A stretch of DNA of 64,000 bases from Alphaproteobacteria bacterium (GTDB lineage: Bacteria; Pseudomonadota; Alphaproteobacteria; Rs-D84). Position numbers and translations under genes: made by a program. Positions 37,382 to 49,931 of the stretch are shown here, in pieces (position 1 is the stretch's first letter; the number at the start of each line of letters is the position of its first letter). The stretch lies in contig JAFVFD010000005.1 in the NCBI GenBank assembly GCA_017475605.1, positions 75,833-139,832 of the forward strand. Direction: 5' to 3'. The notes beneath the pieces were generated by a model. The model had not been told where the DNA came from and ran no database searches. It saw only the letters and a program-made list of their open reading frames with translations.

Positions 37382-37408
37382 AAAACCGCCCGTTTGGGCG
37401 GTTTTTAT
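37381..37408. terminator. Bidirectional rho-independent terminator
   Basis: AACCGCCC-GTTT-GGGCGGTT with flanking A-run and T-run. Confidence 0.6.
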
Positions 37409-40368
37409 TAGAATTGGGTATCAGTACATGTTTCTTTTTCTTCGCCCCAATCTTTACAATACTTATTACCAAACAGCGGGTTCTTGGTATTTTCACAACT
37501 TTGTGAACGGACACATTTATGACAATTCAACGTTTCCCATTCAAATGTCGATGTAATCGTTTCTTTGTAATTCCACTGGTTTAACTGGGCCGAAGCAACC
37601 AACTCACGTTCTGTAATGTTGTCCACACCATTTGCAGAACCAGATCCGACATTACCCAACAACCCCATGCCGGCAACAGCAGTCGCGCCCACAGCCACAC
37701 CATTCACTGTCACCCCCGCAACCGTTATTGCTGTTGCAGAAAGTGCGGCAGGCCCCATAAGCGGCACCGCAACACAGGCACCGGTTATTGCAACCGCGGC
37801 CAATATTTTACCAAACGCATTTTTCGGGGGATTTGGTGATTTTGGCAATGTGGATGATGACGGCAATCCTAAACACGACAAACGTGCAATTTCACGACGT
37901 GCATCCAGGACATTTTTACCCTGAATTTCTGCCATACGTTCCCCAATTGTTGCATAATCTTGTAATAATTTTTCGTTTAATTCATCGTATTTTGTATAGT
38001 AATTTGATTTCGCCTGTTTCAGGGCCGCACTTGCAATCAATGACCGCATTTGCTTTGTTAATTCTGGGAAGCGCGGATTTTCCTTGGATCCGATTGTTGT
38101 GCGGGTTGAACGTGTACCATTCGCCGTTACAACATTTTTATTCATACCCTGAACTTCGCGACCATACATACAGAACTGAACTGTTGGGTCTGATTCAATC
38201 GTATTAATTGCATTATTAATACTATTCTGTAATTGCGCCAATTCAGATTTGACTTTTTCTTTCTGTTCGGGACTGATGCTTTTTGCTTCATCAACTTTCG
38301 TTAAATAGTCTTCAACTGATGATAATTTACCATCGGAACCAACCTCTACACTTTCCCAATAAATTGTCCCATCGATTACACCGGCCAATGGTGTTATAGG
38401 CCCCAATTGAGTACTGGTTGAACCTTCAACACGTCCCAATTCAACGTCTTGAATTTGCGCAACATCGGTACGACATGAATAGAAATCTATATCCGTAAGA
38501 TTTCCATTTTCATCCGTCTTGTAGCCACAAATTTTATAATCCAACGAATGCGCCCCTATTCCATTATCAATGGCTAATCCATTACAATTTTCGGTATCAC
38601 CACAAACTTTGATCATGGCTTCGTCGGCGGCCTTTTGGCACATGGTCAACATATTGTTGTCAATATTCAGCATAATACCTTGGACCATATTGGCGATTTC
38701 ATCGTAAACCTTGTTGCCACGAATATCCTGGCCTTCATAAACCTTTTGACAACCGACCAGTTTATCATACGGACACATACGCATAATGGTATCCGTATCC
38801 AGACCAACACATTGTGTATAGTCCGAACCACAGCGATCTTCTGACTGCAGACAGGATTTAACTTCCTTTGTACAGGAATCAACACGCATAGATGCCAAAC
38901 GCGCGACCACGAAATCCCAAATTTGTGATTTTTGCGCTTTGGATGCACTTGATGCATCAATACCACACGCATTAAGTGGAATCTTACATACATTAAGCAT
39001 CGTTTCTGGACGTGTCAAACACATATCATACGAACCGTCGGGGTCGTTTGGATCGATATTATCACGACAGGCCTTTTGGAAACAGGACGATATATTCCCG
39101 ATACAATTTTGACGGGCATTATCTTCAGCAATCAATTCAGCCGACTTGATTTGCGGTGCAATTTCTTTAAGGAATGTATCCCAAACCTTGTCCGCGACCG
39201 CAACGCATTGTTTTGTAACCGTTTCGCACAACGGTTTCTTAGACAGCAGTGTATCATACGATGATGCCGCTATTTCTATCGTTGTGGCCGAACCCTTGAC
39301 AGAATAACTTTTGGCTTTTCTGGACGTACTTTGGGTTGTGTTTGTATTATCCATCGCAGAAATCATCGCACATGCCGCGAAATCATTACCACAACCACCA
39401 GTTGTCTGCATACACTTTTTGAATTCTATTGTACACTGGCCCAAATCATAACGATTTTCCGCACGCAATTGTTCCAATGCCGCATCGCGCAGTGCGCGTT
39501 CCGCAGTCGCTAATTTAGTTTGACTGGCACTTTTCTGCTGTTTCAAACTGTTTTCATACGCATTACAATCAGATTTGATTTTTTGCGCATATAACAATTT
39601 CAGCATTGACATATCAGCCGCACATTCTGGTATCTGCGCCGCACATAAATCAGATGCCGCCCGTTGTAAAGCGTCCCCTGTTTTACCATCTATTGACGAC
39701 ACTTCACCGAAAATATCAAACACATCGTCTTCTTCGAACATGGCGCTGTTGTCCCAAATCGACAAATCAAGTTTCCGACGACCCTTTTCATCCCGGTCCA
39801 CAGAATCTATCGCATCTTTTGCCGCGGCATTTGCCTTGGCTATCGCCGCATCGGCATCCAATCCCATTTCGATTTTTTCAACACCATATGTTGCCATTTG
39901 ATATGATTGCTGATCCAGTTTTTCGATTTCGGCTAAAACCTCGTCTAATTCGGCATTACGATTACTGCAAACACACCGACCACCACTGGTATTGTCCAGC
40001 ATACAAAACGCATCCATACAGCCATAATATTTATTTTGGCATTGTTCATTAACCGCGGTGTTGGCAACGGCACCCGCAACCTTGGTTCCAGAATTGATAA
40101 CCTTTTGTGATGTAACCGCCGCACGTGCAGCCACAGTTTTGGGTTGTGTTGTGGCACTGCGTACAGATGTATTTCGCACCGCATTCGTTGACCGAACGGC
40201 ATTGCCACGCACCGCACTGCGTGCCGTCGTCGCCGCCCCAGATGTCGCACTTTGCGTCGCAACCGGTGTCCCCGAACCGCGTCCACGCGTTACAGGCGCC
40301 GCCGCATTTGCGTTTATAACCGCACCCAAAATCAACAGGATAGAAATAAATAATTTTCTCATCCACAA
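37408..40368 (-). CDS. Secreted cysteine-rich protein, C-x6-C module family, paralog 4 (986 aa), with a C-terminal Gly/Ala-rich hydrophobic segment
   Basis: Signal peptide MWMRKLFISILLILGAVINANA. Modules CQNKYYGCMDAFCMLDNTSGGRC, CTIEFKKCMQTTGGCGNDFAAC, CETVTKQC, CIGNISSCFQKAC, CTKEVKSCLQSEDRCGSDYTQC. A coiled-coil-like region. ILAAVAITGACVAVPLMGPAALSATAITVAGVTVNGVAVGATAVAGMGLLG. Confidence 0.55.
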   Translation of the reverse strand: MWMRKLFISILLILGAVINANAAAPVTRGRGSGTPVATQSATSGAATTARSAVRGNAVRSTNAVRNTSVRSATTQPKTVAARAAVTSQKVINSGTKVAGAVANTAVNEQCQNKYYGCMDAFCMLDNTSGGRCVCSNRNAELDEVLAEIEKLDQQSYQMATYGVEKIEMGLDADAAIAKANAAAKDAIDSVDRDEKGRRKLDLSIWDNSAMFEEDDVFDIFGEVSSIDGKTGDALQRAASDLCAAQIPECAADMSMLKLLYAQKIKSDCNAYENSLKQQKSASQTKLATAERALRDAALEQLRAENRYDLGQCTIEFKKCMQTTGGCGNDFAACAMISAMDNTNTTQSTSRKAKSYSVKGSATTIEIAASSYDTLLSKKPLCETVTKQCVAVADKVWDTFLKEIAPQIKSAELIAEDNARQNCIGNISSCFQKACRDNIDPNDPDGSYDMCLTRPETMLNVCKIPLNACGIDASSASKAQKSQIWDFVVARLASMRVDSCTKEVKSCLQSEDRCGSDYTQCVGLDTDTIMRMCPYDKLVGCQKVYEGQDIRGNKVYDEIANMVQGIMLNIDNNMLTMCQKAADEAMIKVCGDTENCNGLAIDNGIGAHSLDYKICGYKTDENGNLTDIDFYSCRTDVAQIQDVELGRVEGSTSTQLGPITPLAGVIDGTIYWESVEVGSDGKLSSVEDYLTKVDEAKSISPEQKEKVKSELAQLQNSINNAINTIESDPTVQFCMYGREVQGMNKNVVTANGTRSTRTTIGSKENPRFPELTKQMRSLIASAALKQAKSNYYTKYDELNEKLLQDYATIGERMAEIQGKNVLDARREIARLSCLGLPSSSTLPKSPNPPKNAFGKILAAVAITGACVAVPLMGPAALSATAITVAGVTVNGVAVGATAVAGMGLLGNVGSGSANGVDNITERELVASAQLNQWNYKETITSTFEWETLNCHKCVRSQSCENTKNPLFGNKYCKDWGEEKETCTDTQF

Positions 40369-40509
40369 CCCCCTATTATCTGTATTATTTTATCATATTA
40401 ATCCCTTTATTAAAAACACTTTTTCAAACAAATTTATCCCCTTTCACACAAAATATTGACAATTATTGTTTTTGTATTATATTATACATGTAAACCAGTG
40501 GGGGATTTT

Positions 40510-41292
40510 ATGTCAAACAACATTGACATTTTTGGCGAATTTGCACCGGCTTATACAATAAGCAACGAAAATCAGCGATGGGCAACCAGCGCAGTTCCAA
40601 ACATATCGCGGGTTTTAACCGTTGCGGGTTCTGGCGACCAGGCTTTGTTTTATCACATAAACGGCGCAAAACGAATCGATACATTCGATAAAACTCAAAA
40701 TGCCCGCGTTATCCAGGACATAAAGTTTACCGCCATACAACATGTTTCATACCACGAATATTCTAATTTATTGATAGATTTATTCCATGTCAAAGATATC
40801 AGATGTATCCCAACAATGAAAAAGCTTATGCCTTTATTGCCACGCGAAACAATAAGAATCATTAACACACCGGGCAATAATTATTTATTTGGGGCCGGAC
40901 TGGATGCGCGGTATTATCCTGAAAACATCCCCACGCCCGCGGAATATGATTATTTAAAACACACACTTAAAAAGCCGTTTAATTTTATATGCACCGACCT
41001 GTATGATTTAAGTGCTAAAATAACCGGTAAATATGATTTGATAAACATTTCAAATATTTTTGATTATTGCTATAACGCGCAACAACAAGGTGACATTTTG
41101 AGAAAACTTTCGCGCCATCTTGTACCCGGCGGACATATTGTATATTTACCCCAGGCGGAAAAATTTTCGTATAACAAAATACATATTCCATTACAAAACA
41201 GCGAATTAAATTATCTGCAAAAATTACAACAAAAACAAACAAAAATGATTTTGTTTAGATATACACAATTAGCAAAAATGAAACAGAAATAA
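40510..41292 (+). CDS. Probable class I SAM-dependent methyltransferase-like protein
   Basis: RBS GGGGGA before ATG 40510. VLTVAGSGDQALFY resembles SAM-binding motif I. 260 aa. Low certainty on function. Confidence 0.35.
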   Translation: MSNNIDIFGEFAPAYTISNENQRWATSAVPNISRVLTVAGSGDQALFYHINGAKRIDTFDKTQNARVIQDIKFTAIQHVSYHEYSNLLIDLFHVKDIRCIPTMKKLMPLLPRETIRIINTPGNNYLFGAGLDARYYPENIPTPAEYDYLKHTLKKPFNFICTDLYDLSAKITGKYDLINISNIFDYCYNAQQQGDILRKLSRHLVPGGHIVYLPQAEKFSYNKIHIPLQNSELNYLQKLQQKQTKMILFRYTQLAKMKQK

Positions 41293-41304
41293 AAAACAAA
41301 ATAA

Positions 41305-41328
41305 AAAACGGGGCAAATGCCCCGTTTA
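41305..41328. terminator. Bidirectional rho-independent terminator
   Basis: AACGGGGC-AAAT-GCCCCGTT between 41292 (+ gene end) and the rplQ stop at 41330. Confidence 0.55.
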
Positions 41329-41329
41329 A

Positions 41330-41899
41330 TTATTTGCCGGTTGCACGACGTTTAACAGCAACTTCTTTCTTGGCTGTTGTCGCCTTGGCTGCCTTTGGTG
41401 CCGCCTTTTCTACCTTGGCTGCTGGTGCCTTTGGCGATGCTTTCTTGGCTGCTGGCTTTTCGGCTGTTGCTTCACTTGCAACTTCTGCTGGTGCCGCTGC
41501 TGCCGCTGCCTTTGGTGCAGACTTTTTCGCATTTTCGTCGCGATCAACCAATTCAATAATCGCCATTGGTGCCGCGTCGCCATAACGGAAACCCGCCTTT
41601 AATACGCGTGTATAACCGCCGTTGCGTTTAGCATAACGTGGGCCCAAAACCGCGAACAGTTTTTTAACTGTTGCTTCTGCCCCATTACCCAATTCAGACG
41701 CAATCAAACGACGATTTGCAACGGTATCAACCTTGGCGCGAGTAATCATTTTTTCGACCACACTGCGCAGGTCTTTTGCCTTTGGCAAAGTTGTTTTAAT
41801 TTGTTCACGTTCAATCAAGTTTTTCGCCAAGCCGATAAATAATGCTTTGCGTGCATTTGTGTCGCGATTAAATGTGCGACCTGCTTTCATATGTCTCAT
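41330..41899 (-). CDS. rplQ: 50S ribosomal protein L17 with Ala/Lys/Pro-rich C-terminal extension
   Basis: [45 protein letters not shown]... matches L17. The tail ~[45 protein letters not shown] is low-complexity. Confidence 0.9.
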
Positions 41900-42000
41900 C
41901 GATTACTCCTTTATTTTGTTTCAGCCCCGGACCACCCGGGGATTTGTTGAGACACCCGCAACCAAAGTTTCCCCTGAATTGCGGGTTTTGTTTTTATCCC

Positions 42001-43029
42001 TTATTTATAAGGATCTTCATATTTCTTGGCCAATTCTGCGATATTTTCCGGTGGCCAACCTGGTACTTCCATACCCAATCCCAAACCCATGGCTTCCAAT
42101 TGAGCCTTGATTTCATTCAAAGACTTGCGGCCAAAGTTTGGTGTTTTCAACATGTCTGCTTCGGTTTTCTGGACCAATTCGCCCAACCAATTGATTTTGT
42201 CGTTCTTCAAGCAGTTATTTGCACGAACAGACAATTCCAATTCATCAACATGTTTCAACAATTTCGGATCAAATGGCAACGCATCTTTTGCCTTATCATC
42301 TTCGGATGGTGCATTGATTTGTGCAGGATCTTCAAAGTTGATAAAGACAACCAGTTGGTCTGTCAAGATACGTGCGGCATATGCGATTGCATCTTCTGGT
42401 GCAACACTGCCATTTGTTTTAACTGTCAATTCCAATTTATCATAGTCTGTAGATTGACCAACACGTGTTTGTGTAACTGTGCTGGCTACATTCAAAACTG
42501 GCGAATAAATTGAATCGACCGGAATAACCCCCAATGGTAAATCGGCGGCATTTTGTGATGCAGGCACATAGCCACGTCCGGTTCCCAATGTGATTTCCAT
42601 ATCAAAATTTGCGCCCTTGTCCAAAGTGCAGATTTCGACATCTTTGTTCATAACTTCGACACCACCCGATGTTTCAATCATACCGGCGGTAACGACTGCT
42701 GGACCTTTAACTTTCAGGTATGCTTTGTGCTGGCCTTCGGTCAAGGCTTTGAAATAAACACCCTTTAAGTTAAGGATAATGTCGGTAACATCTTCGCGGC
42801 AACCTGGGACGCTGCTGAATTCATGCTGGACACCATCAATTTTAATATAAATTGGCGCACAGCCCTGAAGTGAAGACAACAATACGCGACGTAATGCCGT
42901 CCCCAGTGTTAAACCGAACCCCTTTTCCAATGGTTCGGCGACCAAAGTTGCGATATTTGAATCATGTTCATCGACCACGACATTAAGTTTTTTTGGCTTA
43001 ATAAGGGTCATCCAGTTCTTTTCAATCAT
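42001..43029 (-). CDS. rpoA: DNA-directed RNA polymerase subunit alpha
   Basis: [18 protein letters not shown]...[34 protein letters not shown]... plus the C-terminal domain ...[12 protein letters not shown]. 342 aa. Confidence 0.93.
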
Positions 43030-43099
43030 ATGTTTTTTCCTTATGGCTTAGTTTATTATTTTCACCAAATTGCGCCCAAACCCGTTGTGCGCGTGCGTT

Positions 43100-43128
43100 A
43101 TTTTATACTGACAAAAGCCAATTGTCAA
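43100..43128 (-). promoter_or_regulatory. Putative sigma70 promoter for rpoA-rplQ, downstream of the inserted island
   Basis: Minus-strand TTGACA (revcomp of 43123-43128), 17-nt spacer, TAAAAT (revcomp of 43100-43105). Confidence 0.4.
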
Positions 43129-43208
43129 CATATTATTCATTGTTTCCACCCCCAAAAGCCCAAGAAAACACCTGAAACATTTGACAAAAATTATTTTTAT
43201 CTAAAAAC

Positions 43209-43237
43209 TTGACAATCGGCATTTTGTGTCCTAATAT
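43209..43237 (+). promoter_or_regulatory. Near-consensus sigma70 promoter for the 43268-43633 gene
   Basis: TTGACA (43209-43214), 17-nt spacer, TAATAT (43232-43237). RBS AAAAGGAA at 43253-43260. ATG at 43268. Confidence 0.55.
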
Positions 43238-43267
43238 CGTATCAGTCCAACCAAAAGGAATACAAAT

Positions 43268-43633
43268 ATGAAAAAAACAATTTTGTCTGGCATCGTCGCA
43301 TGTGTTATCTGCGCACCGGTTTATGCGTCTGACGGTGGTGTCTATGGTGATTACAACACCGAAATGAAAACCACAGCCGAAGATTTCGTTCGTGTCGAAC
43401 GCGTTGCACAACCAGTTGCTGTGAAAACAGTTGCCGCGAAACCAGCATGCACAAAATGCAACAAATGCGCTGCCAAAGTTTGTGGCGAACCATTTGAAAA
43501 GGTTGTAAATCGTGAATATTTCGTTCGCGAAACAGTACAACAGTATCGTCCGGTTGTTTCCTATGTACCGGCTGGTTCATACACAACCGTTCGTGCGGTT
43601 GCAACACCAAAATGCAACAAATGCGGTTTCTAA
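43268..43633 (+). CDS. Small secreted (possibly lipo-)protein with two KCNKC-containing internal repeats
   Basis: MKKTILSGIVACVICAPVYA signal peptide (IVAC is lipobox-like). The repeats ...KPACTKCNKCAAKVCG... and ...TPKCNKCGF end with the same Cys motif. 121 aa. Confidence 0.45.
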   Translation: MKKTILSGIVACVICAPVYASDGGVYGDYNTEMKTTAEDFVRVERVAQPVAVKTVAAKPACTKCNKCAAKVCGEPFEKVVNREYFVRETVQQYRPVVSYVPAGSYTTVRAVATPKCNKCGF

Positions 43634-43660
43634 TAATCGTATAAAAAGTTTGCGCTAAGA

Positions 43661-43695
43661 AAAAAACCACCCAAACGGGTGGTTTTTATTTTTGA
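43661..43695. terminator. Bidirectional rho-independent terminator
   Basis: AACCACCC-AAAC-GGGTGGTT followed by TTTATTTTTG, between 43633 (+) and 43686 (-). Confidence 0.6.
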
Positions 43696-44633
43696 TTTTT
43701 TGCCGCCTGAACATATTGCGACCGCATGACACGCAAAATAGCCACCCAATCTTCGTGTTGATGCATGAACGAATGACGACTTTCTGGAAATTCAACGAAT
43801 CGCATTTTTTCCTTTGGTGAATATTCATTAACCTGGTTATAAATTGAACGAATATATTCAATTGGTGATTTTTGATCTTTGCCGCCCGCAACCATTGTAA
43901 CAGGTATATTATATTGCGCCATCAAATCGGGTCGCGGTTGCAATGCGACAACTTCATCATAAAACTTGGTGAACAATGAAACATACCGGTTTTGTCTGAC
44001 CAGCATAACATCGTGCGGACTCATAAGGCCCATAGGCACTTTTTCAAATTCATCATCAGATAAATCTGGATATTGATGATGATGCATAAACTTTTTTGAA
44101 AAATCGAACCATTCTTTTGTAACATATGGCGCAAACAATATTGCCCCCGAAAAGCCAACCGGACGATTTTGTAAAACACGACGATTAAAAACTTCCAAAA
44201 CCCCCGTTCCACCCAGCGAATGACCAACCACACAGGTCCACTTGCCCATTGACATTTTTGAAACGATTTCCAAACCTGCATCCATCAAATCTATAAATTC
44301 AGGAAACGTATTTTTCTTGGCTAATTCCGCGGATATTTCCGGTTTAAAATTCCCCAGGAAAGTATCCAGCGCATAAATATTATATTTGTGTTTAAGGGAC
44401 CAATAACTTAATGCCCCCATCAATGGTTCTATTTGTGTATTACTGGCCAGGCCCGGCACCAAAACAAAATTACCACGCGCCACATCACCCACCGAATAGT
44501 GTGTAATCTGACCGATTGTTCCCAAATCTGTCCTTGACGAAAAATGCATCTGCCACGTAAAATACTTGCCCTTTAATTCGGGCAACGCATCGGCATAATT
44601 TTTTGGAATAAAAACATCTTTTAGTGGTTTCAT
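43686..44633 (-). CDS. Alpha/beta-hydrolase fold protein (esterase/lipase-like)
   Basis: GHSLGG nucleophile elbow (G-x-S-x-G). About 315 aa. Start taken at MKPLKDV. Confidence 0.55.
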   Translation of the reverse strand: MKPLKDVFIPKNYADALPELKGKYFTWQMHFSSRTDLGTIGQITHYSVGDVARGNFVLVPGLASNTQIEPLMGALSYWSLKHKYNIYALDTFLGNFKPEISAELAKKNTFPEFIDLMDAGLEIVSKMSMGKWTCVVGHSLGGTGVLEVFNRRVLQNRPVGFSGAILFAPYVTKEWFDFSKKFMHHHQYPDLSDDEFEKVPMGLMSPHDVMLVRQNRYVSLFTKFYDEVVALQPRPDLMAQYNIPVTMVAGGKDQKSPIEYIRSIYNQVNEYSPKEKMRFVEFPESRHSFMHQHEDWVAILRVMRSQYVQAAKNQK

Positions 44634-44685
44634 AACAAAACAAACATAACACAAAAACCAAAAATGTCAACAAAACTAAATAAAT

Positions 44686-44712
44686 AAAAACCGCCCGTCT
44701 GGGCGGCTTCTT
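44686..44712 (-). terminator. Rho-independent terminator after the specificity-subunit gene
   Basis: Minus-strand CCGCCC-AGAC-GGGCGG followed by TTTTTATTTATTT. Confidence 0.5.
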
Positions 44713-44715
44713 GCT

Positions 44716-45642
44716 TTAAATTAAATCCGAATACGGCAAAGATTTGATATAATTTTCCATATAATCCCAATCTGGATTGCCATTTTTATCAACAGGCAAT
44801 TTTATGACAGTGTTACGAATTTTTGTCTGATTAAACTTTCGACCATAACTATATCTATATCTTTCTTTATTTATAATAGTCGCAAGATACGCACCGATAT
44901 AACTGTTCAATCTAAATTTTGGTGTCAATTTTTCTACATGGTCACTGGCAGAAAAATTGAATGCCTGATACGAACAAAAACCGGCGACAGCACTATCTAT
45001 AACAAGAACATTTCCTTTTTCTGTAAAATAATTATAAAAACCAGCGACGCCATTATTAGTTGCTTGGGTGGTCACATATGGATATTTACCACTACCGTAA
45101 CTTTCTAATTCATCTAATTTTGTTGTTTTCGTTCCAGATATATCAAATAAATCAGATAACTTAAAACTTTGCCACGATGTCGTATCAAACGGTAATTCTT
45201 TGTGTTTTATTTTTGTGTTAATTGGACTGTAATCGATTTTATATTTTTTCAACCAATCTGGTAATGGTGGTAAATTGATGTTTTTTAACGTTCTGTTTGC
45301 TTGACGACCATAACTATAACGATACGCATTCATTTTTATCGCATGACAATAAAACAACTTTTCTTCCAACGACATTTCTTTTTTAGGTTTCAGCACCAAC
45401 ACATGAAAGCCAGTATAAAAAGGTTTGTCTTGAACAAAAGATGATAAAACACTGCCACCAACAGCAACCGTTATTAAACCCGCTTGAAAGGGTTCTTTAT
45501 CTGTTTTGACAACTCTTGCGACAACGCCATTGTTTTCACCTGTTCTGGCAACAAAATTTATGTCAGCCCCCTTATCAATTTCCATATTGATAAGTTCAAA
45601 ACCATTTCCCTGATAAATATCAAATAATTCTGATACTAACAT
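44716..45642 (-). CDS. Restriction-modification specificity subunit (HsdS / BcgIB-like, two target-recognition domains)
   Basis: Two repeated halves, each ending in the conserved S-subunit spacer motif: ...NAYRYSYGRQANRTLKNINLPPLP and ...ERYRYSYGRKFNQTKIRNTVIKLP. 308 aa. Separated by 2 nt from the upstream nuclease-methyltransferase gene. Confidence 0.7.
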   Translation of the reverse strand: MLVSELFDIYQGNGFELINMEIDKGADINFVARTGENNGVVARVVKTDKEPFQAGLITVAVGGSVLSSFVQDKPFYTGFHVLVLKPKKEMSLEEKLFYCHAIKMNAYRYSYGRQANRTLKNINLPPLPDWLKKYKIDYSPINTKIKHKELPFDTTSWQSFKLSDLFDISGTKTTKLDELESYGSGKYPYVTTQATNNGVAGFYNYFTEKGNVLVIDSAVAGFCSYQAFNFSASDHVEKLTPKFRLNSYIGAYLATIINKERYRYSYGRKFNQTKIRNTVIKLPVDKNGNPDWDYMENYIKSLPYSDLI

Positions 45643-45644
45643 TG

Positions 45645-47507
45645 TTATTCACTCGTTTTTGTCAGATATGCCAGATAATTTTTTACTGTCTGTTCAAAAT
45701 CAGATTGGGCCAGTTTTGAATAATCGGTTTCCATATATGCTTCACACAACCACTCATCATTCCATTTAACAGGTTTTTTTGCGGTAAAACCATCTCTAAC
45801 ATCCAAATTTTCATATAAATCTAACCATTCTTTTTTGATTTTTTCCCAACGATTGAATTTATCAATACGACCTAGTTTTTTTGCCTTTACAAAACCATCA
45901 TCTTTGTAATATCCAAAGAACGTTTGCTTGGTTGAATCGTGTGGTTTATGTGCAGTCCAAACCATTACACAGACATTGGTACTAGCATTATTTGAATAAA
46001 ATATATCATCTGGCATTGAAAACACCGCTTTTAATGTGTGGTCCTTGAACAATCTTTCTCGCTCGGTTTTGAATTTTGTCCCTATAGCACATGACATAGG
46101 CACAACCACAACACCTGTTCCACCAGGTACCAACAAATCCAACATGTTTTGAACAAATTCTAATTCGGTATGCCCCTTCTGTGAATACGGTGGATTAATC
46201 AGACCAACGGTTAATTGTTTTTCTTGTAACCAATCTCTTGTTTCTGCCTTAAAACAATCGCCATATTTAATATTTGACTTACCATCACCACGAACAATCA
46301 TATTCGCAATTGCTAATGTATAAATATCATCATCAGATTCCACACCATATAATTGTTCACGCTTAATTCTCTCTATTTCTTTTTGGTTTGCATTCTTAAA
46401 CATTTTTGACATGGCAGTAACCAAGAAAGCCCCAGAGCCGCAACAAATATCTACCACACGACTATTTTTATTCACCCCAGCCAAATCACACATAAATTCT
46501 GTTAAATGTTGTGGTGTCAATACTATTCCCAGACCCTTACCATCACCACCACTATATTTTACAAATTCATGATAAAATATTCCCAATGCATCAATTGCGC
46601 TGTCGGCATAATCCATCATAGGCTTTATTTTCCTATCAAGTTCAGATATAAACCAAAGCAAAGAATTATCACTGTTTAATGGAATATCTTTTATTGCATC
46701 ATTGCGACCTATTTTTTCAAAATGACCTTTAATATCATTGATTTTATCTTGTCTAATATCACTCTTTTCCAGAACCGTTTTTATTGCATCTTGCAACAAA
46801 GTATGCAATGCCCTGAATGAATTTTGATTTACATAATTATTCACAAAATCATCATCTTTCAACGCAATTAAAATACCAGCAATAAAAACAGGTTTTTCCT
46901 TTTCTGGCATTCTTAAAGCCCGCAAAGAATCATGCATAACCAAAGCCAGTTTTCGAATTTCATCAATAGATACTTTTTTGCTAATTTTTTCACCCTTTAC
47001 CATATGTAAATAATTTTCCGGGTCAAATAAAACGTCCCTTCCTCTCCTTAATTCCTGCGGTTCTTCCTGCCCTTTGCGCCAATCAAACGTGCTAATTTTG
47101 CAATTATCTATCGTTGTCCCAGATACCGCAATTGCAACAACATTAAAATAATCTTTGATAAACTTTGCGTAATACAATACACCATCAACAGCAAATGCAT
47201 CTGGCTGATTTCTTTTTTCGGACTCATGTTTTTTCACTGATGCCTTACATTCTATCACAAGCACTGTATCACGTGATTTATCAAAAGTTATTACAAACTC
47301 CGGTTTACCAATTCCTTTGCCACCGCAGTCATATTGATTTAAATCACAAATCTTGGGTTTACCACCGGCACGTTCCAATGCTTCACGCAAATCGCCGTTA
47401 ATTTTTGACGCATCAGATTGCGGATAAACAACACCCCATGGATTTTTACCAAGTACAAAATCCATTTCTCTTTGTGTTAAACTTTCCGTCATTCTTTCGC
47501 TAGCCAT
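45645..47507 (-). CDS. Type IIB (BcgI-like) restriction-modification enzyme subunit A: N-terminal PD-(D/E)xK nuclease fused to a gamma-class N6-adenine DNA methyltransferase
   Basis: N-terminal KPEFVITFDKSRDTVLVIECKAS fits PD...ExK. SAM motif I VDICCGSGAFL, then motif IV NPPY. 620 aa, close to BcgIA (about 637 aa). No HsdR-type helicase in the vicinity. Confidence 0.7.
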   Translation of the reverse strand: MASERMTESLTQREMDFVLGKNPWGVVYPQSDASKINGDLREALERAGGKPKICDLNQYDCGGKGIGKPEFVITFDKSRDTVLVIECKASVKKHESEKRNQPDAFAVDGVLYYAKFIKDYFNVVAIAVSGTTIDNCKISTFDWRKGQEEPQELRRGRDVLFDPENYLHMVKGEKISKKVSIDEIRKLALVMHDSLRALRMPEKEKPVFIAGILIALKDDDFVNNYVNQNSFRALHTLLQDAIKTVLEKSDIRQDKINDIKGHFEKIGRNDAIKDIPLNSDNSLLWFISELDRKIKPMMDYADSAIDALGIFYHEFVKYSGGDGKGLGIVLTPQHLTEFMCDLAGVNKNSRVVDICCGSGAFLVTAMSKMFKNANQKEIERIKREQLYGVESDDDIYTLAIANMIVRGDGKSNIKYGDCFKAETRDWLQEKQLTVGLINPPYSQKGHTELEFVQNMLDLLVPGGTGVVVVPMSCAIGTKFKTERERLFKDHTLKAVFSMPDDIFYSNNASTNVCVMVWTAHKPHDSTKQTFFGYYKDDGFVKAKKLGRIDKFNRWEKIKKEWLDLYENLDVRDGFTAKKPVKWNDEWLCEAYMETDYSKLAQSDFEQTVKNYLAYLTKTSE

Positions 47508-47596
47508 TTTGTCCTTCCTTTTATAAAAACTATAGACAAAGTTACATATCCCCTACAAGCAATATTTTATCATAAAATGCTTTTTTATAAAACATT

Positions 47597-47626
47597 AAAA
47601 CACCACCGCAATTGCGGTGGTGTTTT
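47597..47626 (-). terminator. Rho-independent terminator immediately after rpsK
   Basis: Perfect 15+15 palindrome AAAACACCACCGCAA|TTGCGGTGGTGTTTT, with a T-run on the minus strand. The rpsK stop is at 47649. Confidence 0.6.
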
Positions 47627-47648
47627 AATAACGGCTAATCAATAATGA

Positions 47649-48032
47649 TTACACGCGGCGCACTTTCTTTGGACGGCAACCGTTGTGCGGAATGCGTGTT
47701 GTATCGGTAATAGATTGGACAATTAAACCCGCGTTTGCCAAACCACGCACTGCGGATTCACGACCCTGACCAATACCGCGCATCAAAACATCAACTGTTT
47801 TCATACCCATTTCGGCGACTTTCTTGCCAACCGCATCGGCTACAACCGTTGCCGCATATGGTGTGGACTTTTTCGCGCCCTTAAAATTATTAGCACCCGC
47901 GGTTGCCCATGTTAACACCGCACCCGACGGATCTGTGATTGTGATACGTGTATTGTTATTTGTCGCGACGACATGCGCAATGCCATGCGATACTTTTTTA
48001 ACTACTTTCTTTTTAGCTTTTGTAACTGCCAT
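47649..48032 (-). CDS. rpsK: 30S ribosomal protein S11
   Basis: ...GIAHVVATNNNTRITITDPSGAVLTWATAGANNFKGAKKSTPYAA... 127 aa. Confidence 0.93.
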   Translation of the reverse strand: MAVTKAKKKVVKKVSHGIAHVVATNNNTRITITDPSGAVLTWATAGANNFKGAKKSTPYAATVVADAVGKKVAEMGMKTVDVLMRGIGQGRESAVRGLANAGLIVQSITDTTRIPHNGCRPKKVRRV

Positions 48033-48093
48033 TATTTTTACCTTTTATTTAGATGTCTTCAATTAACTTTCGTGTTAATCTCTACCCAAAATG

Positions 48094-48471
48094 TTATTTA
48101 CCCTTGACCGCGGAACCTGCGACCACAACACGTTTACCCTTACGCGTACGGGCATTGGTTTGTGTACGTTGTCCACGAACCGGCAAACGATTACGGTGGC
48201 GAATACCACGATATGTTTTAAGGTCTTGTAAACGTTTGATGTTCATTGCGACTTCACGACGAACATCACCTTCGACCTTGAAGTTTTGTTCAATATAATT
48301 CGAAATTTTGATAACATCAGCGTCTGTCAAATCTTTCGCGCGCAAACCGTCTTTCAATTTCAACGCTTCACAAATCTTGGCGGCGCGGGCCGGACCAATA
48401 CCATGAATATAGCGCAACGCGATTTCAATGCGTTTTTCTGCTGGAATGTTAACACCTGCTATACGTGCCAT
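48094..48471 (-). CDS. rpsM: 30S ribosomal protein S13
   Basis: [37 protein letters not shown]... 125 aa. Confidence 0.93.
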
Positions 48472-48611
48472 TTTTCATTTTCCTTTTTTATTGTCTTTGA
48501 CGCGAAAACGCGCCGTCCTTTTTCACCCATAAAATCTGCCGTCCAGATTTACGAGTTATTCTATTTTGCCGAATTATTCTATATTAAATCCGGCAAAAGT
48601 CAAATCTTGTT

Positions 48612-49931
48612 TTAGTTGCGGAACCGCCCATGACGCTGTGCGTGTCCAACAACACCTGTATATTGCTTTGCCACCAAATACGATTGAACCTGGTTCCACG
48701 TGTCCAGAATAACCCCGGCAACGATTAAAACACTTGTTCCACCGATGGTAAGTGGCATACCCGCGTGTGTATTCAAAATAATTGGCAACACACACACCAC
48801 AATCAAATACAGAACACCTATTGCCGTTGTGCGCGATACAACATCATCCAAATATTTGATTGTCTGTTCACCCGGACGAACACCTGGGATATATCCACCC
48901 ATATTTTTAAGGTTCGTACTTGTTTCTTCGGAATTAAATACAACAGCGGTCTGGAAATACGCAAAGAACGCAATTAAAACCGTATACAAAATAATATACG
49001 ACCATGCCCCGTATGTAAAGAATCCCAACACCTGCTGAACGAACAAGTTTTCACTTTGAACGAAACGTTGTACAAATGCCGGTAACATCATAATAGATGC
49101 CGCAAACACAGGCCCCATAACACCTGACATATTAACCTTAATCGGCAAATAAGATGCGTTCGTATTCATAACGCCGTTGGACATAACCTGGCGCGGATAC
49201 AAAATTTGAATACGACGTTGTGCCTGTTCAAAGAATGCGATTAATGCGATAATACCAACAACGAATACAACCGTAAGTGCAATCATCGCAGGCGACATCT
49301 GACCAACGGAACCCAAACTAAATAACTTGCCAACACCACTTGGAATCTGGGCAACGATACCAGCAAAGATAAGAAGTGATGCACCCTGACCCACACCACG
49401 TGCGGTAATCTGTTCCGCCAACCACATAACGAATACGGTACCACCAACCAACGCAATAATAGCCGATAATTCAAATGCGAACCCTGGGTTCACAACCGCG
49501 GCAACACCATTGACCGGCGCCATAGATTCCAAACCACGAACAACCGCCCAACCCTGAACGACCGCTAAAAACACCGCCAAATAACGTGTATATTGGTTGA
49601 TTTTGATACGACCAGATTCACCTTCTTTGCGCAAATCATTCAGGTTTTTACTTGTTGCGGTTAACAACTGTAAAACGATAGATGCTGAAATATATGGGAA
49701 AATATTTAATGCCAAAACCGACATACGCGACAGTGAACCGCCACTGAACATATCGAACATTCCCATCATGCCACTGCCTTCACCATTGAAAAGGTGCAAA
49801 ATCGCAGATGCATTTACCCCCGGTAATGGAATAAAAGAACCGATACGATACACAATCAATGCCCCCAATGTGAACATGATGCGTTTTTGTAAATCAGTCA
49901 AATTTCCAAAATATTTTTTCAAGAGTTTCAT
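48612..49931 (-). CDS. secY: Preprotein translocase subunit SecY
   Basis: 439 aa polytopic membrane protein, ...RIMFTLGALIVYRIGSFIPLPGV..., in the conserved position after rplO. Confidence 0.9.
   Translation of the reverse strand: MKLLKKYFGNLTDLQKRIMFTLGALIVYRIGSFIPLPGVNASAILHLFNGEGSGMMGMFDMFSGGSLSRMSVLALNIFPYISASIVLQLLTATSKNLNDLRKEGESGRIKINQYTRYLAVFLAVVQGWAVVRGLESMAPVNGVAAVVNPGFAFELSAIIALVGGTVFVMWLAEQITARGVGQGASLLIFAGIVAQIPSGVGKLFSLGSVGQMSPAMIALTVVFVVGIIALIAFFEQAQRRIQILYPRQVMSNGVMNTNASYLPIKVNMSGVMGPVFAASIMMLPAFVQRFVQSENLFVQQVLGFFTYGAWSYIILYTVLIAFFAYFQTAVVFNSEETSTNLKNMGGYIPGVRPGEQTIKYLDDVVSRTTAIGVLYLIVVCVLPIILNTHAGMPLTIGGTSVLIVAGVILDTWNQVQSYLVAKQYTGVVGHAQRHGRFRN

Follow-up and report, generated by a model that had tools for sequence, protein, structure and literature searches.

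BcgI is the prototype for Type IIB restriction-modification (RM) enzymes; it assembles as A2B, or (RM)2S, recognizes CGA N6 TGC and cuts at 10/12 on both sides of its site. The defining features of Type IIB are taken here from PMC4081073, and BcgI, CspCI and BsaXI are members with a separate specificity (S) subunit (PMC4081073, PMC3592470). In BcgI the RM chain joins an N-terminal PD...EXK nuclease, within whose motif residue E53 falls (PMC3592470), to a gamma-class NPPY methyltransferase, and the separate S subunit carries two target recognition domains (TRDs) (PMC4081073, PMC3592470). BsaXI, likewise a Type IIB (RM)2S enzyme, is represented by cryo-electron microscopy structures (8W0P, 8W2P and 8W2Q), and Sau42I, the system of Staphylococcus aureus phage phi-42 (GenBank X94423.1), has been called BcgI-like (Dempsey 2005, as cited in PMC2853133). 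Here we describe a predicted RM and S gene pair of this class in a 64,000-nt stretch of DNA from an uncultured alphaproteobacterium (GenBank assembly GCA_017475605.1, contig JAFVFD010000005.1, positions 75,833 to 139,832; the whole stretch is called the window below), where it lies between rpsK, the gene for ribosomal protein S11, and rpoA, the gene for the RNA polymerase alpha subunit. We consider it highly probable that the pair is a mobile RM+S cassette of the BcgI/Sau42I type, which inserted at an already uncoupled, variable junction and has since been kept by vertical inheritance.

Family identity of the RM and S proteins

An earlier reading of the window, hereafter the original prediction, had described a 4.6-kb block separating rpsK from rpoA. 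The block is present (43030–47648, 4,619 bp) and contains four open reading frames (ORFs). Two of these had been called a nuclease/methyltransferase fusion and its specificity subunit, and both were recovered by ORF calling, Pfam and PADLOC: an RM subunit of 620 aa (45645–47507, minus strand) and an S subunit of 308 aa with two TRDs (44716–45642, minus strand), whose start lies 2 nt past the RM stop codon. RM is composed of an N-terminal PD-(D/E)XK nuclease domain (approximately residues 1–175, with P69-E70...E86-C87-K88), a helical linker and a gamma-class N6-adenine methyltransferase domain, whose motifs DICCGSG (353–358; the ORF reads DICCGSGAFL) and NPPY (438–441) lie distal to the nuclease in the same chain. 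An alignment of 30 homologues shows no variation at P69-E70...E86-C87-K88, D353-ICCGSG or N438-PPY.

Profile searches gave a consistent picture of both chains. The PADLOC model REase_MTase_IIG, which represents Type IIG RM fusions, matched RM end to end (334 bits), and Pfam N6_Mtase matched residues 305–612 (E = 3e-30). S was matched over its full length by PADLOC Specificity_II (model positions 5–320 of 322, 155.6 bits) and in two stretches by Pfam Methylase_S (103.9 bits); two internal direct repeats in its gene, D4 and D6, 465–477 nt apart, at the spacing of one TRD, correspond to its two conserved regions. At the structural level, a Foldseek search with a model of full-length RM aligned ~650 columns on the BsaXI RM subunit (E = 1.7e-13), with HsdM, BpuSI and DrdV also among the matches. 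Sequence searches of the PDB gave HsdM subunits as the best matches of RM and a marginal match to BsaXI (E = 5.8e-5); the same search with S returned no matches. BsaXI thus shares the RM+S organization of the window pair, and the predicted structures align, but its RM subunit has 916 aa with an extra 'knob' and a long helix, according to the description of that subunit in PMC11997821.

The closest likeness among the named systems compared is to Sau42I. RM is 35% identical to the phi-42 RM ORF over 588 residues (E = 8e-87), both TRDs of S align with those of the phi-42 S ORF, one of them at 48% identity (E = 3e-43), and another phage homologue pair bears the annotation bcgIA/bcgIB. The two systems have the same gene order, an RM of ~620–640 aa followed by an abutting or overlapping S of ~310–340 aa, and common PE...ExK, CCGSGxFL and NPPYSQ motifs. 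They differ in setting, in that Sau42I belongs to a temperate phage of a Firmicute whereas the window cassette occupies a chromosomal ribosomal protein (r-protein) junction of an alphaproteobacterium and has no mobility genes; overall identity is only moderate. With BcgI, compared by its published description, the pair shares the nuclease–methyltransferase chain, the separate two-TRD S and the lack of a separate methyltransferase or translocase. From profiles, motifs and Sau42I homology, RM and S are therefore assigned as a BcgI/Sau42I-like Type IIB module, the sequence-level features of which are all present, and the original call of a BcgI-type A+B system with no HsdR is upheld. The module is self-contained: its neighbors are rpsK and an alpha/beta hydrolase gene, there is no added methyltransferase, HsdR or translocase gene, and the unit kept in seven other genomic contexts consists of promoter, RM and S only.

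Single-chain Type IIG/IIL enzymes (MmeI, AloI and DrdV-like) carry their TRD or TRDs fused at the RM C-terminus. This class was ruled out for the window, where nothing follows the methyltransferase domain in the 620-aa chain and S has an ORF of its own; some RM homologues of 780–805 aa do bear a fused PF01420 domain.

The RM family is large, with 4,773 homologues at E <= 1e-10 among 8,000 candidates scored, and members at 60–68% identity come from metagenome-assembled genomes (MAGs) attributed to Spirochaetes, Elusimicrobia, Planctomycetes and Fusobacteria and also from Clostridium perfringens. An exact-sequence look-up of the 620-aa protein gave no match. The protein as deposited at NCBI (P0001, 606 aa) begins only at M15, with the RM start region at 47466–47507 of the window; residues 1–14 (M1, E4, T7 and E8) show conservation or complete invariance among homologues of 620 aa, which makes M1 rather than M15 the probable true start.

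Borders, mobility and age of the cassette

By its RpoA protein the source lineage is Candidatus Enterousia (96% identity to the related loci L001–L004), an uncultured gut alphaproteobacterial genus of the order Rs-D84 with genomes mostly <1 Mb (PMC12306168). RM and S are absent from the close relatives L001, L002 and L004, and in L003 the whole rpsK–rpoA spacer measures just 709 nt. The original prediction had suggested that related genomes be compared for a junction lacking the insertion, and L001, L002 and L004 provide the RM- and S-free form; in these genomes, rpsK is followed after ~80 nt by terminator, TTGAC promoter and hydrolase gene. Nucleotide homology between the window and L001, L002 and L004 stops at the rpsK stop codon (47648) and restarts at 44712–44671, just upstream of the hydrolase promoter. 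Because homology breaks at these points, the foreign piece is only ~2.93 kb long (44713–47647) and comprises RM, S and the region upstream of them.

Base composition distinguishes the same two genes. RM (GC 0.352, with 0.266 at third codon positions) and S (0.327 and 0.250) are the two lowest-GC of the 46 window ORFs (mean 0.436, sd 0.033); the values for the hydrolase (0.400) and for the small ORF beyond it (0.457) lie within the ordinary range of the window. The A/T-rich character assigned to the inserted block as a whole is thus confined to RM and S. In every context in which it was found the RM gene has a GC content of 0.33–0.35, like that of low-GC islands (0.35–0.37) and unlike that of the Enterousia flanks (0.43–0.45). 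Judged by composition and distribution, the RM+S cassette is a horizontally acquired, compositionally foreign unit.

Several candidate regulatory signals accompany the cassette. Directly 3′ of rpsK is a palindromic, intrinsic-terminator-like hairpin (47593–47630, minus strand; a 17-bp stem in the scan), the arms of which span 18+18 nt (47594–47629) and are 100% complementary, with a folding energy of -26.4 kcal/mol (z = -6.8 versus shuffles); the perfect palindrome that had been noted after rpsK is therefore real. A different hairpin takes its place in L081, a related locus considered below. A putative cassette promoter, TTGTAG and TATAGT separated by 18 nt, is located at 47529–47558 (minus strand). 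Its CTTG and T.TA.A.T columns are invariant in 5/5 aligned contexts (rpsK, tRNA-Ala/frr and integrase islands), and the consensus upstream of RM across contexts is TTGTNG-18-TATAAT. Downstream of S is a further terminator hairpin (44686–44711, minus strand; an 11-bp stem in the scan, -18 kcal/mol, z = -4.8), whose sequence, GCCGCCCAGACGGGCGG, resembles that of the native rpsK terminator of L001, GCCGCCCGATTGGGTGG.

Evidence for mobility comes from other genomes, where cassettes 84–87% identical in the RM protein (80–82% in nucleotides) adjoin tyrosine integrases, a serine recombinase, DUF927 and Rep genes. In L082 (RM 87% aa) the cassette has a tyrosine integrase and a DUF927 protein as neighbors, and in L083–L085 (84% aa) a serine recombinase stands on one side of it and a tyrosine integrase on the other, a Rep-like gene being present as well. 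The copy in L097 (320–11702; 86% aa) is part of an integrase-bounded defense island with an AAA_15 ATPase, Hypoth_Ymh, HEPN_AbiU2, DUF4268 and DUF488. Further copies stand beside tRNA-Ala and frr (L088–L090) or in an unrelated chromosomal context (L093–L096). Between contexts, nucleotide homology is limited to the two ORFs and the ~70 nt upstream that hold the promoter-like element. In these respects the cassette resembles the mobile RM gene complexes and the insertions into operon-like structures described by Furuta, Abe and Kobayashi (2010, PMC2853133), in which an RM unit likewise sits amid undisrupted housekeeping genes; the window unit is integrase-linked in other genomes, but at this locus it lacks long target duplications or inverted repeats, and its target is the rpsK–rpoA boundary of the alpha r-protein cluster. 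An integrative island or transposon was rejected for the window locus itself, where the insert is RM and S only, with no flanking direct or inverted repeat pair.

The age of the insertion is indicated by L081, which belongs to a different species and has the RM gene at the same site, with 91% aa identity and a homologous rpsK–RM junction. A neighbor-joining tree of secY–rpsK pairs the window with L081 as its sister and leaves L001 and L002 outside the pair. Between the window and L081, dS is 0.86 for RM and 0.79 for secY, and dN/dS is 0.06 for RM and 0.07 for the nuclease domain alone; a dN/dS comparison with L093 was discarded as unreliable, unaligned codons having led to implausible values. 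As the sister species shares the site, synonymous divergence is host-like and dN/dS is low, the cassette is old and maintained, and the suggestion that the insertion is recent fails on the same evidence. The simplest reading of these comparisons is one insertion in the common ancestor of the window species and L081, followed by vertical inheritance of a functional system. The S gene has had a different history, for window S is 85% identical to the island version in L083, 60% identical to that in L082, where the second TRD differs, and 38% identical to that of the sister L081. The S gene or its TRDs thus appear to have been exchanged while RM was inherited vertically, a form of TRD swapping also seen in Type I S subunits.

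Long retention and S or TRD exchange would also fit phase- or specificity-variable methylation by a domesticated methyltransferase-specificity module, that is, an epigenetic regulator or M+S 'orphan' whose nuclease has gone out of use, and Enterousia genomes are indeed reduced, at <1 Mb (PMC12306168). We regard domestication as unlikely: the nuclease catalytic residues are among those invariant across the 30 homologues, the nuclease is under constraint like that of the methyltransferase (dN/dS 0.07 versus 0.06), and no simple-sequence tract suggestive of phase variation was found.

The rpsK–rpoA junction in Candidatus Enterousia

In the canonical alpha operon, rpsM-rpsK-(rpsD)-rpoA-rplQ, the genes are co-transcribed and rpsK and rpoA are contiguous, no terminator or promoter intervening. 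Contiguity is lost in the window, where 4.6 kb separates the two, and a predicted terminator and promoter are present in even the shortest Enterousia spacers. We surveyed the junction in 80 species-level related genomes and took spacer statistics from the 49 that keep the rpsK–rpoA order. The median length of the rpsK–rpoA spacer is 1,446 nt; in 41/49 genomes it is >300 nt, and the longest among the relatives measures 4.3 kb; the neighboring secY–rpsM and rpsM–rpsK spacers are <=185 nt and <=172 nt, respectively (n = 44). In at least 13 further genomes rpsK does not occur within at least 5 kb upstream of rpoA, with various housekeeping genes found where the order is broken, and in four genomes (L069, L070, L074 and L080) the secY-rpsM-rpsK block is downstream of rpoA-rplQ on the opposite strand. 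The operon had been called exceptionally conserved, which does not hold in this lineage.

Spacer contents vary by species and include ORFans of up to 964 aa, Cys-rich Ephrin_rec_like proteins (also with TNFR-like matches) and other hydrolases; the spacer of one Enterousia species (L013:3891-6848) holds rpsB, tsf and a family-2 glycosyltransferase. On this evidence the rpsK–rpoA junction is a lineage-wide variable hotspot and rearrangement breakpoint, and the RM cassette is one of its occupants. A genus-wide defense island was rejected, in that Pfam and PADLOC scans of representative gap proteins gave ORFans, Cys-rich secreted proteins, hydrolases and housekeeping genes, with one DNA methylase match, a weak ZorA match and a weak PDC-M72A match as the only defense candidates. 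Among the best 25 of 47 Pfam families in the gaps there were no integrases or transposases. A literature search on RM insertions at rpsK/rpoA returned nothing relevant.

The separation of rpoA from rpsK is also apparent at the promoter level. The predicted rpoA promoter (43100–43128, minus strand) consists of TTGACA and TAAAAT separated by 17 nt, with 11/12 positions matched. Promoter-like matches are as frequent over the whole region (19) as in shuffled sequences (18.3), and it is conservation in relatives alone that makes the site credible: TTGAC(A/T)-N17-TATAAAAT is kept in 11/12 aligned Enterousia-like loci, including L008 and L022, in which the rpsK–rpoA spacers are 208 and 138 nt. The L022 alignment shows both a terminator-like hairpin and the rpoA promoter within the 138-nt spacer. 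Because the promoter is ancestral and present even with spacers of 138–208 nt, the cassette would not have rewired rpoA, and by this comparison rpoA-rplQ was already an independent transcription unit before the cassette arrived. The original prediction had placed a promoter of this form 5′ of rpoA, which is present, and had taken it to be new, with consequences for rpoA transcription; it is not new, and no such consequences follow from the cassette.

The remaining two ORFs of the spacer, which had been described as an alpha/beta hydrolase and a divergent small secreted protein, are both present. The hydrolase (315 aa from its ATG; 43686–44633 or 44654, minus strand) has a GHSLGG nucleophile elbow and weak Pfam matches below the gathering score (Hydrolase_4 and Abhydrolase_6). 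L001, L002 and L004 have orthologues at the corresponding position (58–70% aa identity), and a collection of 5.8 billion proteins yielded 43 homologues, for which the only source names are Alphaproteobacteria MAGs. Upstream of the gene is a promoter-like site found by scanning (44643–44670, minus strand; TTGACA, 16 nt, TATGTT, with an upstream TG), and a like TTGAC...GTGTTA arrangement is found 5′ of the hydrolase gene in L001 and L002, directly past their rpsK terminators. These comparisons mark the hydrolase as a lineage-specific, pre-existing resident that is neither cassette nor defense cargo. The small protein (121 aa, two CNKC motifs; 43268–43633, plus strand, divergent from rpoA) has a signal-peptide-like N-terminus, is probably secreted and has no Pfam match. 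The 80 related loci contain 34 instances of its family (cluster 0), mostly immediately upstream of rpoA on the opposite strand, and by its distribution the protein is likewise an old resident of the junction, shared with L001, L002 and L004. In L058, L061, L064, L065 and L075 a homologue is located just 3′ of rpsK and is followed by ORFans of 656 and 245 aa. Between the convergent hydrolase and small-protein genes is a predicted bidirectional terminator (43662–43687, both strands; an 11-bp stem with T-runs on either side).

These residents bear directly on the proposal that a single, recent 4.6-kb mobile defense islet split a conserved rpsK–rpoA operon, with a new promoter arising for rpoA-rplQ. 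The four ORFs are contiguous in the spacer, a strong promoter-like site stands 5′ of rpoA, and RM and S are AT-rich, all of which speaks for such an islet. However, the hydrolase and small protein occur in L001, L002 and L004 without RM and S and are of normal GC content, the hydrolase family is small and carries Alphaproteobacteria MAG names only, the small protein recurs across the related loci, the rpoA promoter is conserved genus-wide even with the shortest spacers, and the sister species shares the insertion at host-like dS. A single islet is accordingly very improbable; what stands of the islet idea is that RM and S are foreign and missing from L001, L002 and L004, which share the other two ORFs of the block.

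Beyond its promoter, rpoA has a conserved 5′ leader motif, GGTGAAAATAATAAACTAAGCC (43045–43066, minus strand), most columns of which are invariant in relatives. It is the strongest conserved block of the 12-locus alignment and persists in the distant L072, which is without the promoter hexamers. The predicted fold of the rpoA leader is no more stable than that of shuffled sequences (z = -0.05). The motif may act on rpoA as a translational operator or enhancer.

The genes flanking the spacer are all on the minus strand. Upstream are secY (48612–49931), rpsM (48094–48471) and rpsK (47649–48032), the last gene of the upstream r-protein transcription unit, with matches to Pfam Ribosomal_S11 (129.9 bits) and NCBIfam uS11 (162 bits) and a protein 97–100% identical to those of relatives; downstream are rpoA (42001–43029; NCBIfam rpoA, 484 bits) and, 3′ of it, rplQ (41330–41899). 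The ORF list shows no rpsD between rpsK and rpoA in this cluster. Rfam gave a sub-threshold match to the S4-binding alpha-operon leader, Alpha_RBS (RF00140), at the rpsM start and upstream of it (48439–48537, minus strand; 34.7 bits versus a gathering score of 38, E = 3.7e-5), and otherwise only terminator-like noise over 41000–49000. Convergent with rplQ is a gene for a DUF3419-like putative S-adenosylmethionine-dependent methyltransferase (40456–41292, plus strand; GC 0.362, z = -2.3), which is kept 3′ of rplQ in many relatives at just 30–60% identity. Farther along is a 986-aa Cys-rich ORF with a signal-peptide-like N-terminus (37408–40368, minus strand), which, with the Cys-rich spacer proteins of other species, may belong to a fast-evolving surface-protein family of the genus. 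In the spc cluster of L081 an extra ORF of 139 aa with no Pfam match (L081:2584-3003) lies between rpmD (L30) and rplO (L15) and may mark a second small insertion site in the r-protein cluster.

Proposed history and significance

Two further accounts of the locus concern what the pair is and whether the arrangement exists. The Pfam and NCBIfam names (N6_Mtase/hsdM-like and Methylase_S), the HsdM subunits among the PDB sequence matches and the homology of the methyltransferase domain and S to HsdM and HsdS could suggest a Type I system whose HsdR is elsewhere or lost. We find this still less credible than a single islet. With the TIGR00497 hsdM model the score is 64 bits, far short of the cut-off of 243, a PD-(D/E)XK domain of 175 residues is fused N-terminally to M, and S is short (308 aa); the best profiles are those of a Type IIG RM fusion and a Type II specificity subunit, the pair is homologous to Sau42I, and there is no adjacent helicase-type gene (HsdR or SF2 translocase) to supply a motor. 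An assembly or binning artefact might come to mind for an uncultured MAG with a cassette of deviant GC content, but the 5.1 kb from rpsM through rpoA recurs at 99.98% nucleotide identity in L086 (a 364-kb scaffold) and at 99.93% in a third assembly, L087, independent assemblies that argue against misassembly or a chimera, and with L081 showing the same rpsK–RM junction an artefact is the least believable account.

Several observations weigh against the history that we favor, a mobile cassette inserted once at an uncoupled junction and then inherited vertically. The nearest characterized enzyme by comparison, Sau42I of phi-42, is just 35% identical. Neither the repeat search nor the ORF list showed an integrase, a transposase, a target-site duplication or terminal inverted repeats at the borders of the cassette. 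The insertion point is ambiguous, in that an L001-like terminator lies 3′ of S in the window but between rpsK and RM in L081. The U-tract of the 17-bp hairpin after rpsK is broken (UUUUAAUGUUUU), and some read-through from the r-protein operon into RM could occur. With regard to the shared site, the L081 contig ends inside S and bears on the upstream side of the junction only, the case for common ancestry draws on one neighbor-joining tree of a 2.3-kb region and on similar dS values, and transfer by homologous recombination through the conserved flanks could have left a similar picture.

By homology to BcgI and BsaXI, the 620-aa RM and 308-aa S subunits of this cassette would assemble as (RM)2S, with S reading a bipartite target. 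Host DNA would be protected by the N6-methyladenine that the gamma-class methyltransferase places on each half-site, and incoming DNA without this mark would be cut by the N-terminal PD-(D/E)XK domains, at a fixed distance to either side of the site. The cassette, bearing its own promoter, would have come from a lower-GC gene pool in which the module rides integrase-bearing islands, and would have landed, by a presumed insertion event, in the ~80-nt spacer after rpsK in the common ancestor of the window species and its sister Candidatus Enterousia species. Vertical inheritance under strong purifying selection would have followed, with the S gene or its TRDs swapped in the meantime. The site would have been a tolerant one, rpsK and rpoA being already separate units in the genus and the hydrolase and small protein earlier residents of the hotspot.

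The insertion is thus real but fairly ordinary, given an already uncoupled and highly variable junction, and the restriction system itself, one more member of a large family that is widely transferred, is routine. What is of most interest is the lineage-wide hypervariability of a normally invariant junction, together with the long-term retention of an intact restriction system there. The rpsK–rpoA junction is usually taken as invariant and used as a synteny anchor; its hypervariability here, where terminator and promoter are ancestral, calls for caution in operon-based annotation, and it makes the junction a convenient locus for strain typing and for studies of accessory-gene turnover in Enterousia. 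A broader reading, which we offer only tentatively and hold to be somewhat doubtful, is that the rpsK/rpoA boundary, within the most conserved of gene clusters, is in Rs-D84/Candidatus Enterousia (genomes of ~0.75–1 Mb) a lineage-wide landing pad for flexible genes, with the RM cassette one instance of a general mechanism. If this were true, near-identical essential flanks could serve as homology arms for interspecies exchange, cargo downstream of the r-protein operon might gain growth-rate-linked expression by read-through, and streamlined genomes would thereby keep a small accessory compartment. Strong purifying selection has maintained a complete Type IIB system in a gut symbiont of reduced genome size (<1 Mb) from before the time at which two species diverged, and phage or plasmid pressure therefore appears to matter even for these partner-dependent bacteria.

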